NCBI GenBank assembly: GCA_028534125.1
Contig: CM052816.1
Coordinates: forward strand, 31,684,001 to 31,748,000
DNA: 64,000 nt
Source: Lama glama
Lineage: Eukaryota
Reading direction: 5' to 3'
The position numbers were made by a program, and so were the translations under genes. The notes under the pieces are model-generated. The model had not been told where the DNA came from. It ran no database searches and saw nothing but the letters and a program-made list of their open reading frames with translations. Position 1 is the first letter of the stretch. Each line of letters starts with the position of its first letter. Shown in pieces: positions 830-62,776 of the stretch.

Positions 830-3800
830 CCCAGAAAATAATTAACAAAATGGCAACAAGTATATACATATCAATAATTATTTTAAATGTGAATGGACTA
901 AATGCTCCAATCAAAAGACAAAGGATGGATGAATGGATTAAAAAATAAGCCCCATATATATGCTGCCTACAGAAGACTCAATCCAGATCTAAAGTCACAC
1001 ACAGGCCAAAGTAAAAAAATGGAAAGATATTCCATGCAAATGGAAATGAAAATAAAACTGGTGTAGGAATACTTGTATTAGACAAAGTAGACTTCAAAAC
1101 AAAGACTAAAACAAGAGACAAAGAAAGGCACTGAATAATGCCAAAGGGATTAATCCAAGAAGAGGACATAAACTTGTAAACATCTATGCATCCAACTAAG
1201 AGCACCTAAATACACAAAGGTAATATTAGCAGATAGAAAGAAAGAAATTAACAGTAATACAATAATAGGAGGAGACTTTAATACCTCCACCATGTCAATG
1301 GACAGATCATCCAAACAGAAATTCAGTAAAGAAACATTGGCCTGAAGTAAAACATTAGACCCAATGGACTAAATAGATGTACAGTTGACCCTAGAAAAAT
1401 ATGAACGTGAACTGCACAGGTCTCCTTATCTGTGGGTTTATTTCACTAAATACATACTACAGCACTACACAATCTGCAGTTGGATGTGGAACTGCAGGTA
1501 TAAAGGGTGGATTATAAAGTTATACACAGATTTTTGGACTGTGAGAGAGCTGGCACCCCTAACCCTTGCATTGTTCAAAGGTCAACTGCACACATAACAT
1601 TATACCCCAAAACAGCAGAATAAACATTCTTTTCAAGTACACATGGGACATTCCCCAGGACAGATCACATGCTAGGTCACAAAACAAGATGCAATAAATT
1701 TTAGGAGATTAAAATCATATCAATCATCTTTTCTGATCACAATAAAACTGAAATCAATTACAAAAAGAAAACTGGAAAAACACAAATACTTGGAGGCTGA
1801 ACAACATACATGTAAGGAACAGATGGGTCAATGAAGAAATTAAAGAGGAAATCAAAAAATACCTTGAAGCAAAAGAAAATGGAAATACAATGTTTCAAAA
1901 TATATGGGACACAGCAAAAGCAAATCTACGAGGAAATTTACGGTGATATAGGCCTAACTAAAGAAAGAAGAAAAATCTCAAATAAACAATCTAAGTTTAC
2001 ACTTAAAGGAACCAGAAAAAGAAAAACAAAGTCCAAAGAGAGTAGAAAGAAGAAAATAATAAAGATGAGCAGAAATAAATAAAATGAGACAAAAATAGAA
2101 AAAATTAATAAAACTAAGAGCTAGTTCTTTGAAAAGATAAACAAAATTGATATACCTTTAGCCAGATTCATCATGAAAAAAAGAGAAAAGGCCCAAATAA
2201 ATACAAGGAGAAATGAAAGAGGAGAAATTAGAACCAACTCCACAGAAATACGAAGGATCATAAAAGATTACTACAAACAGTTACATGTCAACAAATTGGA
2301 CAAGCTAGAAAAAGTGGGTAAATTCCTAGGAACAGACAATCTTCCAAAACTAAATCAGAAGATATAGACAATCTTTAGACCAATCACTAGTAATAAAATT
2401 GAGTCAGTAATTAAAAAAAAAATCTCAACAACAAACGTTCAGGACCAGACATCATCACAGGTGAATTCTACTTAATGTTTAAACAATTAATACATATCCT
2501 TCTCAAACTACTCCAAAAAACTGAAGGAAAAGGAATGCTTCCAAACTCATTATATGAAGCCAGTATTATCCTGCTGTTCAAACAAGACAAAGATGCTACA
2601 AAAAGTAAGTTTACAGTATAATATCACTGATGAACATAAATGTAAAAGATCCTCAACACAATATTAGCAATCAAATTCAACATTACGTTAAAAGAATCAT
2701 ACATCATGAGCAAGTAGGATTTATCCCAGGGATTCAAGGATGGTTAATACCTGCAAATCAATCAACATGATATACTACATAAACAAACTGAGGAGGATAA
2801 AAATCATTTGATCATCTTAATAGATGAAGAAAAAGCACTTGACAAAATTCAACATCCACTTATGATAAAAACTCTTACCAACGCGGGTATAGAGGAACGT
2901 ACCTCCTCAATATAATAAAGGACATATATCACAAACCCACAGCTAACATCATACTCAAAGGTGCTGAAAGCATTTCGTCGAAGATCAGAAACAAGACGAG
3001 GGTGCCCACTTTCATCACTTTTATTCATCATAGTATTGGAAGTCCCAGCCACAGCAGTCAGAAAAGGAAAAGATGTAACAAGCATCCAAACTGGAAAGAA
3101 AGAATTGAAACTGTCATTATTAGCAGAAGCCATGATACTATATATAGAAAACATCAAAGACTCCACCAAAAAAAAAACCAAACCATTAGAAATAATAAAT
3201 GAATTCAGTAAAATTGCAGAGTACAAAATCAATATAGAAAAATATGTTGCTTTTCTATACACTAGTAACAAACTACTAGAAAGAGAAATTAAGAAAATGG
3301 TCCCATTTACAACTTCATCAAAAAGAATAAAATACCTAGAAATAAATCTAAGAAGTAAAAGACCTGTATCCAAAAATCTGTAAGACACTGAAGAAGGAAA
3401 GTGAAGATGACACAAACAGGTGGAAAGATATACTGAGTTCATGGATTAGAAGAATCAATATTGTTAAAATGACCATACTTCCCAAGGCAATCAACAGATT
3501 CAATGTAATCCCTATTAAAAGAGCAATGGCTTTTTTCACAGAAAAACAAATAACCCTAAAATTTGTATAGAAACCCAAAAGACCCCAAATAACCAAAGCA
3601 ACATGAAGAAAGAAGGAGAAAGCTGGAGGTATCATGCTCCTTGATTTCAAACTACACTACAAAGCAATAGTAATCAAAATTACTGCACAAAAGCAAACAC
3701 ATAGATCAATGGAACAGAAGAGAGAGCCCAGAAAATAATGCATGCTTACATGGTCAATTAATTTGTGACAACAGAGCCAAGAATATACAGTGGAGAAAAG

Positions 3801-5125
3801 ACAGTCTCTTCATAAACAATGTTAGGAAAACTGGACAGCCACATGCAAAAGAATGAAACTGGACTACTTTCTTATACTCTATACAAAAATAAACTCAAAA
3901 TGGATTAAAGACTTAAACATGAACATAAAGACATTAAACCATAAAATGCCTAGAAGAAAACAGACAGTATTAGTCTTAGCAATATTTTTTTGGATCTGTC
4001 TCCTCAGGCAAGGGAAACAACAGCAAAAATAAACAAATGTAACTATATTAAACTAAAAAAGCTTTGTACAGTGAAGGAAACAATCAACAAAATAAAAAGG
4101 CAACCTGCTGAATGGGAGAAGACATTTGCAAATGATATATCCAATAAGGGGTTAATATCCGAAATATATGAAGAACTCATGCAACTCAATGTAAAAAAAA
4201 TCCAATTAAAAAATGAGCAGACGACCAGAACAGACATTTTTCCAAGGAAGACATACATGAAAATATGCTCAACATCACTAACCATCAGGGAAATGCAAAT
4301 CAAAACCACAATGAGATATCACCTCACACCTGCCAAAATGGCTATTATCAAAAAGACAACAAATAACAAGTGCTAGCAAGGATGTGGAGAAAAGGGAACC
4401 CTTGTGCATTATTGGTGGGAATATAAATTGGTGCAGCCACTATGGAAAATATTATGGAGTATCCACAACAAGTTAAAAATTAAACTAGCATAGATAGAGC
4501 AATTCCACTTCTGAGTACTTATTCAAAGAAAAAAATAACACTCATTAGAAAAGATATATGTACCCCCAAGTTCATTGCAGTATTATTTACAATAGTCGAG
4601 ACACAGAAGCAACCTAAATACCCAAGGATGGATGGATGGCTGAAGAAAATATGGCTAAATATACAATGGAATATTATTCAGTCATGAAAACAATGAAATC
4701 TTCCCATTTGTGACAACTTTGGTGGATGTAGAAGGTATTATGCTAAAAGAAATATGTCTGACAGTGAAAGACAAATACCATATGATTAAACTTATATTTG
4801 AAATTTAAAAAACAAAACAAACAAAACAGAACAGACTCACGGAAAACTGGAGATTGCCAGAGGGGAGGCAAGGTGCGGGTTTGGGTAAAAGAGGTGAAGG
4901 AGATTAAGAGGTACAAACTTCCAGTTGTAAAGTAACAGTTTTGGGGATATAATATGCAGTAAGGGAATACAGTCAGTCATACTGTAATAACTTTGTATGG
5001 TAACAGATGGCTACTAGACTTAATCGTGGTGCTCATCTATAATGTGTATATATGTTGAATCGTCATACAACCGAAACTAATGCAGTATCATATGTTAACC
5101 ATAGTTCAATAAAAAAGCAAAAAAT
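830..5125 (+). mobile_element. Older L1 (L1MA9-like) with near-complete but disrupted ORF2 (EN, RT, C-terminus) and 3'UTR
   Basis: ORF2 start ATG at 850 (MATSIYISIIILNVNGLNAPIKR), RT motif RRGCPLSSLLFIIVLEV near 2995, C-terminal [15 protein letters not shown] near 4290, many stops and frameshifts, aataaa plus A-rich tail near 5108. Confidence 0.93.
1382..1588. mobile_element. Tigger2-derived MITE (MER8/Tigger2a-like) inserted in the L1 endonuclease region
   Basis: TIRs cagttgaccctagaa ... ttcaaaggtcaactg; left flank TA, right flank CA (decayed TA TSD); the L1 sequence resumes on both sides. Confidence 0.85.
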
Positions 5126-15639: not shown

Positions 15640-16790
15640 CATTCATTCACTCATTCATTCATACCTTCAAAAAACATTTACTGATGACAAATGCTGGAGA
15701 GGCTGTGGTGAAAAGGGAACCCTCCTTTACTGCTGGTGGGAATGCAGTTTGGTGCAGCCACTGTGGAAAACAGTATGGAGATTCCTCAAAAGACTAGGAA
15801 TAGACTTACCATATGACCCAGGAATCCCACTTCTGGGGATCTACCCAGAAGGAACCCTACTTCAAAATGACACCTGCACCCCAATGTTCATAGCAGCACT
15901 ATTTACAATAGCCAAGCCATGGAAACAGCCTAAATGTCCATCAACAGATGACTGGATGAAGAAGATGTGGTGTATTTATATAATGGAATACTATTCAGCC
16001 ATAAAAACCGACAACATAACGCCATTTGTAGCAACATAGATGTTCCTGGAGAATGTCATTCTAAGTGATGTAAGCCAGAAAGAAAAAGAAAAATACCATA
16101 TGAGGTCGTTCATATGTGGAATCTAAAAAAAACAAAACAAAACATAACATAAATACAAAACAGAAACAGACTCATAGACATAGAATATAAACTTGTGGTT
16201 GCCAAGGAGGTGGGGGATGGGAAGGCACAGACTGGGATTTCAAAATGTAGAAAAGATAAACAAGATTATATTGTATAGCACAGGGAAATATATACAAGAT
16301 CTTGTGGTAGCTCACAGCAAAAAATGTGACAATGAATATATGTATGTTCATGTATAACTGAAAAATTGTGCTCTACACTGGAATTTGACACAACACTGTA
16401 AAATGACTATAACTCAATAAAAAATGTTTATATATAAAAAAAATTTACTGAACATCTACTACATGCCAGGCACTGTTCAAGATGCTTGAGATATATCCAT
16501 GAGGAAAACAGACAAAGAAGCTGCTCTTGTGAAGCTTACATCCTAGGAGATTGATAGGAAGGGGAACACAACATAACAAATAACACAATAAGTATATAAG
16601 TTCAGGTTTGTTAGAAGGTAACAAGTTTCAAAGAGTAAAAATAGAGCATTTTTGTGGGGAGGTAAGGGAGTCTCAAAGAGTCAAGATGGGAGACTGGGTT
16701 GTAATTTTTCATAGGATTGTCCAATTAGAGATTATTGAAAAAGTAAGACTCGAAGGAAATGAGGGGCTTAGCTGTGTGTTATATGGACAA
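15640..16790 (-). mobile_element. L2 3' end, interrupted by the L1 at 15684-16442
   Basis: cattcattcactcattcattc...atttactga | acatctactacatgccaggcactgttc...gaagcttacatcctag rejoins into a canonical antisense L2 tail. Confidence 0.85.
15684..16442 (+). mobile_element. Young 5'-truncated camelid-type L1 with TSD
   Basis: ORF2 C-terminus (ORF 15749-16039), 3'UTR with aataaa, TSD core atttactga at 15676-15684 and 16443-16451. Confidence 0.95.
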
Positions 16791-37860: not shown

Positions 37861-38041
37861 AAATGTATTACTATGTACAAATGGATTATTTCCTAAAGTG
37901 AATTAAATTTTAAAATTATAAAGTGTAAGACTAGCAAGGTACTTAGAGATAATCAAGCTCAGGTTTTTTTCCTTAAGTAATTTTGATAGACATCTATTCC
38001 CAGGAGTACTTAAAGGTTGCTATTAAAGAAAAAAGCCAAAC

Positions 38042-38883
38042 GGACAAGGATGCCCACTATCACCACTCCTATTCAACATAGTCCTGGAAGTCCTAGCCAC
38101 AGCAATCAGGCAAGAGAAAGAAATAAAAGGGATCCAAATTGGAAAAGAAGAGGTAAAAGTGTCATTATATGCTGACGACATGTTACNNNNNNNNNNNNNN
38201 NNNNNNNNNNNNNNNNNNNNNNNNNNNNNNNNNNNNNNNNNNNNNNNNNNNNNNNNNNNNNNNNNNNNNNNNNNNNNNNNNNNNNNNNNNNNNNNNNNNN
38301 NNNNNNNNNNNNNNNNNNNNNNNNNNNNNNNNNNNNNNNNNNNNNNNNNNNNNNNNNNNNNNNNNNNNNNNNNNNNNNNNNNNNNNNNNNNNNNNNNNNN
38401 NNNNNNNNNNNNNNNNNNNNNNNNNNNNNNNNNNNNNNNNNNNNNNNNNNNNNNNNNNNNNNNNNNNNNNNNNNNNNNNNNNNNNNNNNNNNNNNNNNNN
38501 NNNNNNNNNNNNNNNNNNNNNNNNNNNNNNNNNNNNNNNNNNNNNNNNNNNNNNNNNNNNNNNNNNNNNNNNNNNNNNNNNNNNNNNNNNNNNNNNNNNN
38601 NNNNNNNNNNNNNNNNNNNNNNNNNNNNNNNNNNNNNNNNNNNNNNNNNNNNNNNNNNNNNNNNNNNNNNNNNNNNNNNNNNNNNNAACTGTAGAATAGA
38701 TAAACAAGATTACACTGTATAGCACAGGGAAATATACACAAAATGTTATGATAACTCACAGAGAAAAAAATGTGACAATGAGTGTGTATACGTCCATGAA
38801 TGACTGAAAAATTGTGCTGAACAGTGGAATTTGACACAACATTGTAAAATGATTATAAATCAATAAAAAATGTTTAAAAAAAA
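38042..38883 (+). mobile_element. Young 5'-truncated camelid-type L1 spanning an assembly gap
   Basis: Uninterrupted [48 protein letters not shown] (RT, YADD intact) before the gap; L1 3'UTR, aataaa and A8 after it. Confidence 0.95.
38187..38686. other. Assembly gap of exactly 500 N
   Basis: Directly visible. Confidence 1.
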
Positions 38884-38964
38884 GAACATAACAGAAGGCC
38901 TGATGTATAATAAATGATCTGTAAATAGGTTAAGGATGATGATGATGACAGTAGTCATGACCTG

Positions 38965-39244
38965 TGTCAAAGGGTCCAGACTTCCAGTTATAAGCTGAGC
39001 AAGTTCTGGAGGTGTAATGTGCAGCCTGGTGACTGTTGTGAATGATAATGTACGTTTGAAATTTGCTGAGATAGTGTATCCCATACACCTACATAAAAGG
39101 GGTATTGTGTGAAGTGATGCACACGTTGATTAGCTTGATTGTGGTGATCATTGCTTAGTATATGTATTTACCAAAACATCATGGTGTACACCTTAAATAT
39201 GTACAATTTTTATTTGTCAAGCATAGCTCAATAAAGCTGGAAAA
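38965..39244 (+). mobile_element. Older L1 (L1MA9/L1MB-like) 3' end carried inside the transduced segment
   Basis: gtcaaagggtccagacttccagttataag...gattagcttgattgtggtgatcatt...gtacaccttaaat...ctcaataaagctgg. Confidence 0.85.
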
Positions 39245-39656
39245 GTAGTCCTGAAAAAAAAAAAAAAGAAAAGAAAAAAGCCAAACCGAAGGTTCTTATG
39301 TGGTCAGATAATTTTTGGCAATGCTAGATCAAACAGTATTTGTCAGATTTCTTTAATGCAGTGATTCTCAGTGCTAATGCGCTTTGTGAATCTCTAAGAA
39401 AGGGCTGTTGCTTGCTGAGTTGTCCATGGAACCATTTTTTGAAGAAGCTTTTCCCAAGACTTGTGTTCCACGGAACGTGCACTGGAAGATAATGATCTAT
39501 TCTGACCACCCTCCACACATACACACTCCCCCGCTACAGTAAATGATTTTCCTTGTCACATAGCTGAAGGAAAAACCACGGACCAGAGCCCACTTCTCTT
39601 GACTTTCAGGCAGGGCTCCTTACTTTACATCACAGCAAGTCAGTAAGAGATGAGTC

Positions 39657-40025
39657 TGTACAAATACAGCTCTCTAAAATGACCCTGAACTTCCATTAGT
39701 TTGCCCTATATATTTACCTTCCCACAATTTACCACTCTTAGAAGTTCAAACCCCTTTTCCTCTTTCTTATTACTTCTCCATAAATTTATTTGTTAAAATG
39801 GTGTACAAGCCCCAGAAACTAAGCACTTCTTTGGGAGATCTTCATTTCCTACCAAGAAGGCCTCCATGAACATAAACATTAAAACATCAAGACTAAAAAA
39901 AAAAAAAAAAAAAAAAAAATCAATATGCCTTTTCTTTTGTTAACCAGTCTTTTGTCAGTTTAATTAGCAGGCTTCATTTACTGAACATATGAGAGCAGAG
40001 GAAAATTTTTTCTTCCTTCCCTGCA
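39657..40025 (+). mobile_element. ERV1 LTR fragment, MER34-like, with an internal A25
   Basis: atatttaccttcccacaattt and ttgttaaccagtcttttgtcagtttaatt blocks; homologous to the LTRs at 59565 and 62296. Confidence 0.75.
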
Positions 40026-41280
40026 CCCTCCAACCACACCTGATTTTAAAAAACCACCTCTACCACCTCTGTGTGTGCTCAGATCATTAAATTAGATCAA
40101 CGTGTCAGATACGAGGAAAGAAAAGAGCAACACCAAAAAAAAAAAAAAGTGCCAAATTAAAAGGGAACACTATATAATAGCTATGGATACAAGATTTTAA
40201 GTTAAAGCATCATAAGACATGAGCTTCCACTTTTCAACAGATGTATTAATCACAGTACAATTTTATTGACAATATTCATCAGCATACCACAAACCGTCTT
40301 ACAAATTCATAGTTTAGCTAAATCTATTCAGAGGTCTTAATTACACAGAAAGCATCTTCACCTCCTGTGGCTTTACCAGGATGTCTTTAGGAAGTTCCAG
40401 ATTCAGAAGCCTTTTGCCAATGGTGACTGTGCACTTGATTTGCCACACATTTTCTTCCCTCAATAACTCGATCAATCAATAAGCAGAGATGTGTGTGTCT
40501 AATGAGGTTCAGGCACTTTTTCATTTTGGAACATAGCCAGTTTGATTTTTCCAAAGTAAAAAATCCTTTTACCTTTAAAACTTCTTACCTCGCTTACCCT
40601 TCCATGGATCAAAATCCAAAAGGCCCAGAAAGTCTGATCAACTTATTAAACCTGCTGGGAGAAGGAAAAGCCCTTTAGATGCAGCCTATCTGCACACCTG
40701 TTTCAACGTGGATCAGCAGCTTAGACTTCAGAAATCTACTGGGTTTTCAGGCCTTAGCTAGAGATGACTACACACGAGCAAACCCCAGCCCTGTAAATCA
40801 CCTCCTTCTTTGTTTTCGGTTCCACTCCTCCTAATAGTTTTACCAGCATGTGTCAACTAATAGTTACTCCATATATGTTAAAACAATTACTCTGCAAGCA
40901 TCCTTGCAATTTGACTTCTATGTTGAAGTTAGCCACTGTTATGACAACAGCCTCTCTTATATTTTTACCTACAACACCTCCCAGAAAAAGATCATGCCCT
41001 AAGTTGTTGAGGGAAGGAACATAGCAAGGCTAATGAGTGAGGATTCCTCACGACTAAAGATCTCTTGACCTAGTTTCTGCAGGACAAGGTGAGAGAATAT
41101 CAAGGCTGTCAGTTCCTAATGCACTTTTCAGTTCAGCTCAGTTTAACAAGCTTTTTTTCTAACATATTAAATGTACAGAGATTAAAAAAGACCCAAGGAC
41201 TTGCCCCCAAGGACTTGGAGTTAAGTGAGAACAAGAGAAATAGGAAAAGGCATTTTGAAGGCAGTGTGGGGAGTACTATC

Positions 41281-41484
41281 CAGAGGCAAATTTACTGTGA
41301 TGCTAATGAAACCTAAGCTCTTGTATCCACGGGCCCTGCTGAGAAAGAAGGTTCTTAGCAATATATTCCCTTGATCATAAGCTTCTGTCGATTACAAAAT
41401 TAAGATACTTGTGTACACTTTTCCTTCAAATGGAACCCCCAACTGGACAAAATCCAGGGCTTATACTATTAGAGGTCTGTCCTG
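41281..41484 (+). mobile_element. hAT-Tip100 MITE (Zaphod/MER115-like ends)
   Basis: cagaggcaaatttactgtgatgctaatgaa start and ggtctgtcctg end form degenerate TIRs. Confidence 0.55.
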
Positions 41485-43064
41485 ATGCCACCACTCTTAT
41501 TGTATTTATAGGGTTCAGTGGGTTTTGACTGGTAAGGACTTGGAAATTCACCTTCAAGCCTCATCCAAACTGACCACATCATAGAGACCTTGAAACACAA
41601 ATAATAAGACCACACCATTACGATGCTGCTGCTGTCAGCAAAGACCTCAACCACAAAAGGAAATTTTTTTCAGTGTGAATTCAAGATAATTCAATGAGAT
41701 AAACAATCAAAGCTCAATCACTCATCATTAAACCTGTTGTAAGGATTGGATGTCTCCTGAAAGCTCTGAACGTCACTAGCAAAGCAGCTCTTGTACAGAG
41801 AAGTGCACAAAATGCTAGCTTGCTGAAGTGGAAATTTTCATGTAAAGATGAGGCAAAGCAATTCATAGCACTAACTTGGATGTGATGGAATTTGGAATCA
41901 GCAAACCTTGGGAACTCCCCAAATCTACCTAAAGTATATTGACAGGATAGCTAGATGTATAGAGAGTTTAGATCTATTTACATACACACTGACGCACAGA
42001 GGTGTGAGTTTAATTATGTCAGCCCAAATTCAAAGTATATAGATGACGCTATCTCAAACAACTTGCTCTCTTCCCACATCTCACAGAACTTACAATAGAG
42101 AGCAAAAGACTCAAAACGTCATTCCGTCTTTACCACCATACTTAAATTCCTTACTTTGAAATATAGAGGCCCAGGAACAAAATTAGACATACTTCAGATG
42201 TTACGTAATGGTTCAACGAAAAGACAAGTAGCAATGGCTATCGTAGGTCATCTGTTAACACCTTCAGTTTCCAGTTTCCAAATATCATGGCCTTTTTCTC
42301 CAAGGCTACGGTCACGTCGCTTGTCTTGCTTTAGGGGGAGATTAAGGCTGCCACCTACTGCTCACAGGAAATGGGCCATTCTAAGAGTATTCTCTTCAGA
42401 AAGCAGAACTGTTTTCTGTCATCTCTGTTGCTTCTAAAACTGAGACCAATAGCTGTTATCTCTGTTACCGTCCCCACCATTCTATGTCCTTTTCTGTCAC
42501 TTTTTCCTATTTTCTTTTCCTTCCCCCTCTGTCTTCTTCAGAATTTCTCATATTTTTTCCAGTTTTAGGAAAACTCACTTGTAAAGCATCTGGCATTTTT
42601 TGATTCACCCAGAAAAATGCTAAGTAAGAATTTTAGACTGGTTTTCAAAGCTTTTGCCTTTTTGTTTTAGTCATCCAAAAAGTTTTGTGAATTCATTTTT
42701 TTGCTAGATGCCAGTGAGAGAGAGGGAAGACCCTTTCTTTGGACTCTCATTGTGTGGTTGCACTCAGCCTCCCATGGAGTCCTGTCTGCGCAGTGACACG
42801 ACTGTTGTGTGCTTGTCTAATACTAATGGTGCAGGCTGCAAGCTCTTCTAAAGCAAAGCTGCTGTCTGACAATCCTCCAAAGTCCTTCACATGCAGAGAG
42901 CTCATCACATCAAAGTGTGCTCAGAAATTATTTGGGAAAGAGGGGCTAATTTTTATGAGTTTCTTCTGGTAAAGAGTATTTATTCAATGGGACTATTCCC
43001 TTCCTTTTAGAAGACAATTACAGTCTCTCAGTTGTAATGTTCCAGTTTTGAAAAGAAATCACCT

Positions 43065-62295: not shown

Positions 62296-62776
62296 AGTAA
62301 CAGACCTTCCAACTGCAGAATATGCCACCCAGAAAGATACTGCTTTGACATAAAATTTTCATCTGAAGGCAATTAAGAAACAGCAAACACACAAGAAACT
62401 TCCCCCTTTCTGCCTAAAGGTAAGATATAAATTCTTCTTTTACTGGAAACAGACCCTTACTGGCCCAGAGACCCCACCAGACAAATGTGCAAACAAACCT
62501 TACTCATTAGTTTCCTCTCATACATTTACCTTCCCACAGTTTTCCACCCTTGGAAGCCTGAAACTGCCTTCCTTTCTCTTGTCATTTCTCCACAAATATA
62601 TTATTCTTTGTTAAAGATGCTATAAAAGCCAAAATATTAAGCCACCACTTTGAGTTACTTTTCTCCTGCATGATGTGCACTGCTATTAACAAATATTTTT
62701 TGCTTGCTAATCAGTCCTTTTGCTAAAGATCCCCAGCTGAAAAACCTAAGATGGGTAGTTTTGCCTCCCCTCCGCA
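62296..62776 (+). mobile_element. ERV1 solo LTR, MER34A-like
   Basis: cagaatatgccaccc...ctgaaggcaattaagaaacagca...catttaccttcccacagtttt...tgctaatcagtcctttt. Confidence 0.8.

Follow-up and report, generated by a model that had tools for sequence, protein, structure and literature searches.

The locus at 38025-39286 is best read as one partnered L1 3′ transduction, in which a single germ-line insertion would have carried a 5′-truncated L1 together with DNA from downstream of its donor copy and a second poly(A) tail; judged on the sequence of the locus, we put the probability of this reading at about 0.85. It would be a further example of the already known process of L1 3′ transduction. The poly(A) signal used for the second tail most likely came from the 3′ end of an older L1 lying on the same strand. 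In the following, the window denotes the whole 64-kb stretch of DNA that was analysed, and all positions refer to it. The parts of the locus are given in Table 1.

Table 1. Features of the insertion and its surroundings, in window positions
Feature	Positions	Strand	Basis
Endonuclease-type site TT/AAAG	38023..38028	+	sequence
Left target-site duplication, 17 bp	38025..38041	+	exact match, chance estimate
L1 ORF2 reverse-transcriptase part, 5′-truncated; 48 open codons, end YADDML	38042..38186	+	Pfam RVT_1, identity step
Assembly gap, exactly 500 N	38187..38686	.	sole N run in window
Carrier L1 3′ UTR with own AATAAA (38862-38867)	38687..38875	+	window comparisons, five-end alignment
First tail, A8 (putative copy of the donor L1's genomic tail)	38876..38883	+	
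Extra DNA part 1, MIR/L2-like 3′ end, right border approximate	38884..38950	+	38882-38926 vs. reverse of 16443-16487
Extra DNA part 2, older L1 3′ end with AATAAA 39230-39235, borders approximate	38970..39244	+	alignments to window L1 ends
9-nt stretch separating the new tail from the short A-rich end of the old L1 (putative donor flank up to the cleavage site)	39245..39253	+	
Second tail, A14 + GA	39254..39269	+	
Right target-site duplication, 17 bp	39270..39286	+	exact match, chance estimate, blind A-run search
Right flank, with ~37960-38024 a candidate old DNA-transposon relic	39287..39495	.	

One target-site duplication encloses the L1 and the extra DNA

The 17-mer AAAGAAAAAAGCCAAAC is identical at 38025-38041 and 39270-39286, can be extended on neither side and is present in two copies only within the 64-kb window. 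The first-pass annotation had described this perfect target-site duplication (TSD) and the tt in front of it, and both were confirmed, with the match lying above chance in the Markov estimate and in the search of A-runs. Under a Markov model of the window, in which the figure applies to a position after an A-run, the chance of such a 17-mer was 1.8e-9 to 5.5e-9 per position and 2.4e-6 to 7.1e-6 over 1300 positions; the most cautious count, with the three leading A letters assigned to the tail, gave 5e-5 to 1.1e-4. In a blind search of the window's 40 A-runs of length at least 8, a single one had an exact upstream repeat of at least 12, and this was the tail at 39254. Maximal exact repeats of at least 17 numbered 76 in the window, 25 of them left without the two-letter and close tandem ones; 23 of these were pairs of L1 copies, one was a TG run, and the TSD pair alone lay less than 4 kb apart. 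The TT directly before the left TSD gives a target TT/AAAG that differs by one mismatch from TT/AAAA, the consensus of the L1 endonuclease.

This one 17-bp pair encloses the L1, the extra DNA and the second tail. For an inner duplication at A8, a suffix of at least 4 nt standing before the L1 5′ end was sought at 38870-38920; it recurred for none of 10 trial ends, and therefore no duplication closes at A8. A search of the window against Rfam gave no matches, and none of the 14 tandem-repeat rows of the window fell inside 38025-39286.

The carrier L1 is 5′-truncated and interrupted by an assembly gap

Translation of 38042-38185 matched Pfam RVT_1 above the cut-off (E 4.1e-8, 33.6 bits). Identity to the older ORF2 copy at 2995-3138 was 14-17 of 20 from 38043 on and 3-7 of 20 before. 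A lenient BLAST extension to 37990 had raised the left flank as L1 ORF2, which would place the left TSD inside the L1, and this candidate was rejected. The L1 likeness of the flank scored 5/3000 in an alignment with ends picked afterwards and 1028/3000 in a local test; when the alignment was anchored and its end left free, 272 of 600 random pieces did as well (43 of 600 with the TSD fixed), and the anchored score of the flank was 1 vs. about 28 expected for L1. The identity step at 38043, taken together with the null result of this fair anchored test, therefore indicates that the L1 begins at the left repeat. At the 5′ junction itself, a single G (38042) is unlike the older ORF2 copy, the alignment with which starts at 38043; it may be an untemplated base or a subfamily difference. 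Another L1 on the + strand of the window, at 2843-5122, is an older, frameshifted 3′ half of ORF2 with 3′ UTR that gave a weak RVT_1 match (E 5e-4).

The two visible pieces of the carrier are both on the + strand and in the right order, with about 1.8 kb between them unread. Two other L1 copies of the window imply 1783 nt between these pieces, and the gap would thus probably hide about 1.8 kb of L1 if the pieces are collinear. As some 1783 nt of L1 is expected in this place, the 500 N would be a placeholder, and the whole insert would measure about 2.5 kb, again if collinear. The 3′ UTR of the carrier is 84.8% identical to 16243-16437 and 69-77% identical to three more copies in the window. 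The L1 stands 5′ of the extra DNA and ends at its natural 3′ end and tail. Being 5′-truncated, the carrier copy is immobile on its own.

The extra DNA ends in old-L1-like sequence and a second tail

Between the first and second tails lie 370 bases of extra DNA (38884-39253), here called the tag. In an alignment of five L1 ends from the window, invariant columns were frequent as far as the tail region, with hardly any past the tail. None of the four other L1 ends, among which none is closer than 85% to the carrier, continues into 38884-39253, and these four copies rule out the extra DNA as part of the carrier 3′ UTR.

The extra DNA had earlier been described as a MIR-like end plus an old L1 3′ end. 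The second half of this description is upheld by alignments within the window. The segment 38970-39162 matched 4906-5103, the end of an old ORF2-bearing L1 at ~2840-5120, in 127 of 176 columns (0/2000 shuffles), and it also aligned with 32533-32403 (14/2000 shuffles); 39108-39231 was 66% identical to 32454-32336 (E 6e-8). The first half is hinted at by one of nine alignments tried, in which 38882-38926 was identical to the reverse of 16443-16487 at 32 of 43 positions, a result reached by 5 of 2000 shuffles; we take this part to be MIR/L2.

Since old L1 3′ ends found in the window can be aligned with the greater part of the extra DNA, the AATAAA used for the second tail is most likely derived from such an older element, and it stands 18 nt before the tail. 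Part 1 of the extra DNA holds a further AATAAA at 38909-38914, upstream of the one used, and the RNA would therefore have passed two hexamers before being processed. The second tail begins with A14 at 39254-39267, which is separated from the right TSD by GA (39268-39269). We argue for a fresh polyadenylation as the source of this tail, and against the old element's own tail, because 9 nt lie between the old A-rich end and A14, and because a pure tail would hardly be expected on an end whose likeness to its relatives is only 62-72%. The GA and the first TSD bases (39268-39273) copy the AAAG unit of the target within the tail, and the GA may thus be a product of priming slippage that repeated this unit.

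The first-pass annotation had given A8 (38876-38883), A14 and the AATAAA with its 18-nt distance as they are found in the sequence. Its two-tail layout stands as far as the tails and the TSD are concerned, and is here completed by the GA, which it had left out, by the AATAAA at 38909 and by the 500-N gap between the two halves. Its central proposal, one L1 insertion with a 3′ transduction that used the AATAAA of an older L1 as its end point, fits every test made in the window.

The flanks and the possibility of resident DNA

The insertion had also been placed inside a hAT MITE, and we take the flanks (39287-39495 and ~37960-38024) to resemble hAT-Charlie MITEs. This host assignment did not hold up in the inverted-arm test: each of five alignments of inverted arms joining the flanks was reached by shuffles (198 to 1749 of 2000), in a test that an old decayed element could fail. 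No second copy of the right flank was found within the window. In camelids, hAT-Charlie elements account for 1.2-1.6% of the genome (PMC8605555). Further downstream, an LTR-like piece at ~39540-40025 is 70-73% identical to 62505-62652 and 59834-59572, with a pure A25 in its middle (39895-39919). As no duplication of at least 12 was found around this A-run, it more probably arose by expansion of the run than by insertion.

Treated as halves of one element, the flanks gave an empty-site score of 28.5, and 1691 of 1945 random left flanks were as good (986 of 1939 in a second random-flank control). This negative result speaks for another reading of the locus, in which the MIR-like and old-L1 DNA would be resident, a solo young L1 would have inserted just upstream, and the 17-bp pair would be due to chance or be a remnant; alternatively, the two halves would be misjoined at the gap. 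The 500 N between the halves is in keeping with this, as is the composition of the TSD, in which 11 of 17 letters are A. We nevertheless consider resident DNA very unlikely, given that the chance of the 17-mer is at most ~1e-4, that no duplication is found at A8, and that a pure A14 followed by a perfect 17-mer is ill-suited to an L1 end 62-72% like its window relatives, while a misjoin does not explain the same 17-mer at both outer junctions.

Age of the insertion and public sequencing runs

With rates taken as 3e-9 to 1e-9 per site and year, the 17 identical sites of the TSD allow an age of 29-88 My for the insertion. The perfect duplication thus limits the age to tens of millions of years only, and the earlier proposal of a recently active source L1 goes beyond what these sites can tell. 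The carrier may be younger than the solo L1 at 15684-16437, to judge from its open frame, its pure tail and the gap lying inside the L1.

For comparison with public data, 296 words sampled from 38687-41500 were looked up in 24 sequencing runs. Shares of 0.82-0.97 were obtained in 20 runs (4 organism labels, 9 studies, one run flagged as the possible source), and the four runs with at most 0.04 of the words were taken as no evidence either way. Eleven runs besides the possible source, from 4 organism labels and 5 studies, reached at least 0.90. By our own arithmetic, and with even sampling assumed, runs lacking the extra DNA should reach no more than roughly 0.88; since the 11 runs exceed this value, the tag is probably genuine DNA in this closely related group. 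The word shares fit a filled site and the donor locus alike, and they fail to tell a filled from an empty site, because the tag would be present at the donor locus too. Five runs of one organism label gave 0.82-0.83 of the words, with most others at 0.88-0.97; the low share could stem from a haplotype lacking part of 38687-41500, or from coverage.

Proposed course of the insertion

In the transduction that we propose, transcription of a donor L1 elsewhere in the genome would have continued through its own AATAAA and A8 tail and through the second AATAAA, 25 nt further on. Cleavage and polyadenylation of the RNA would then have followed 18 nt past the AATAAA in the older same-strand L1 end, approximately 350 nt downstream. 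ORF2p would have nicked the target at TT/AAAG and primed on the new tail (target-primed reverse transcription), reverse transcription would have run through the 370-nt flank and some 2.1 kb of L1 before stopping inside the RT domain, and repair would have left the 17-bp duplication.

A template-switch chimera would likewise leave one TSD pair and two tails: ORF2p would start on an unrelated polyadenylated RNA, made up of the MIR-like piece and the old L1 end, and jump to the tail of an L1 mRNA, so that there would be no genomic donor in which the tag follows an L1; that the event is known here from the insertion alone, and not from a donor locus, agrees with this as well. It is, however, highly improbable, as the L1 part reaches precisely to its natural 3′ end and carries a short A8 there, like a genomic copy, and as known L1 chimeras mostly have the cellular RNA 5′ of the L1. 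Least probable are two nested events, with an orphan transduction or retrocopy (38884-39269) inserted first with the 17-bp TSD and a young L1 later at its 5′ junction: the hidden 1.8 kb is unread and alleles would be needed to discriminate, yet such an L1 should have its own duplication around 38042-38883, and none of at least 4 nt was found for any of the 10 trial ends.

Under the transduction reading, the tag of 370 nt offers a lead to a donor L1 that was once competent, and whether the site is filled or empty could help to mark lineages. It is improbable, and we mention it as a tentative extension, that the tag marks a multi-copy L1 sub-lineage which took its 3′ end from the polyadenylation signal of an extinct L1 family and whose donor is still segregating; if this were true, a tag made of old repeats would be masked in standard transduction screens. 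Transduction tags containing older repeats are commonplace. The locus illustrates how old L1 ends on the same strand may provide younger L1s with transcription stops that are already in place, and how old repeats can be moved long after the death of their family, which may mislead the annotation of repeat age.

Comparison with known L1 insertions

A solo 5′-truncated L1 on the + strand of the window (15669-16451, ~750 nt, 84.5% like the copy at 2-783) served as a control, and presumably sits in an apparent reverse L2 end. It resembles the carrier in having the same type of 3′ UTR (84.8%), an A-rich target and a 16-bp duplication (15669-15684/16436-16451, 15 of 16 identical by eye). Unlike in the carrier, this duplication closes at the first tail, right at its end and without extra DNA.

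There is ample documentation of L1 3′ transduction in humans and other primates as well as in dogs (PMC9311842, PMC4862182, PMC13103737). Among 7103 human polymorphic L1s, 268 high-confidence tags of 8-997 nt are given (PMC9311842), and three non-human primates yielded 274 events, corresponding to 2.5-8.8% of non-reference L1s, with TSDs of 4-25 bp (PMC4862182). About 25% of insertions are stated to come with transduction, sometimes with bypass of canonical signals, and a signal lay 10-30 nt upstream in 274 of 349 human transduction ends (PMC13009371). In the case of one human source, more than 90% of tags end at the 6th or 9th signal, several signals being skipped (PMC5673974). With tags carried by a few to about 25 of 100 L1 insertions in the surveyed species (PMC4862182, PMC13009371), a single event such as the present one is of small weight. 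A literature search of titles and abstract openings, with most subscription papers outside it, found no camelid transduction survey and, in the same scope, no paper centred on termination at the signal of an older L1.

Human partnered transduction has the build seen here, with a 5′-truncated L1, a first tail, a flank of tens to hundreds of nt and one TSD pair, and likewise an AATAAA 10-30 nt before the second tail (here 18) with earlier signals skipped. The 17-bp TSD falls within the primate range of 4-25 bp, and the 370 nt within the human range of 8-997 nt. The present locus differs from the human cases in that its donor is inferred, its tag is almost wholly old repeat and its host is a non-primate.

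In canines, 322 loci are described; ten of them have a tag in common, and some cases are parentless (PMC13103737). The first-pass annotation had held that the tag identifies the source L1; this need not hold, since transductions in dogs may lack a parent in the assembly at hand (PMC13103737). The canine screen is described there as discarding tags with fewer than 25 unmasked bases (PMC13103737), so that an all-repeat tag like 38884-39253 could be missed by it. The primate and canine cases are polymorphic and donor-mapped, whereas the locus described here is known from the structure of its sequence alone. In non-human primates and canines the same structure is found in the germ line, and it is used there to trace source elements.
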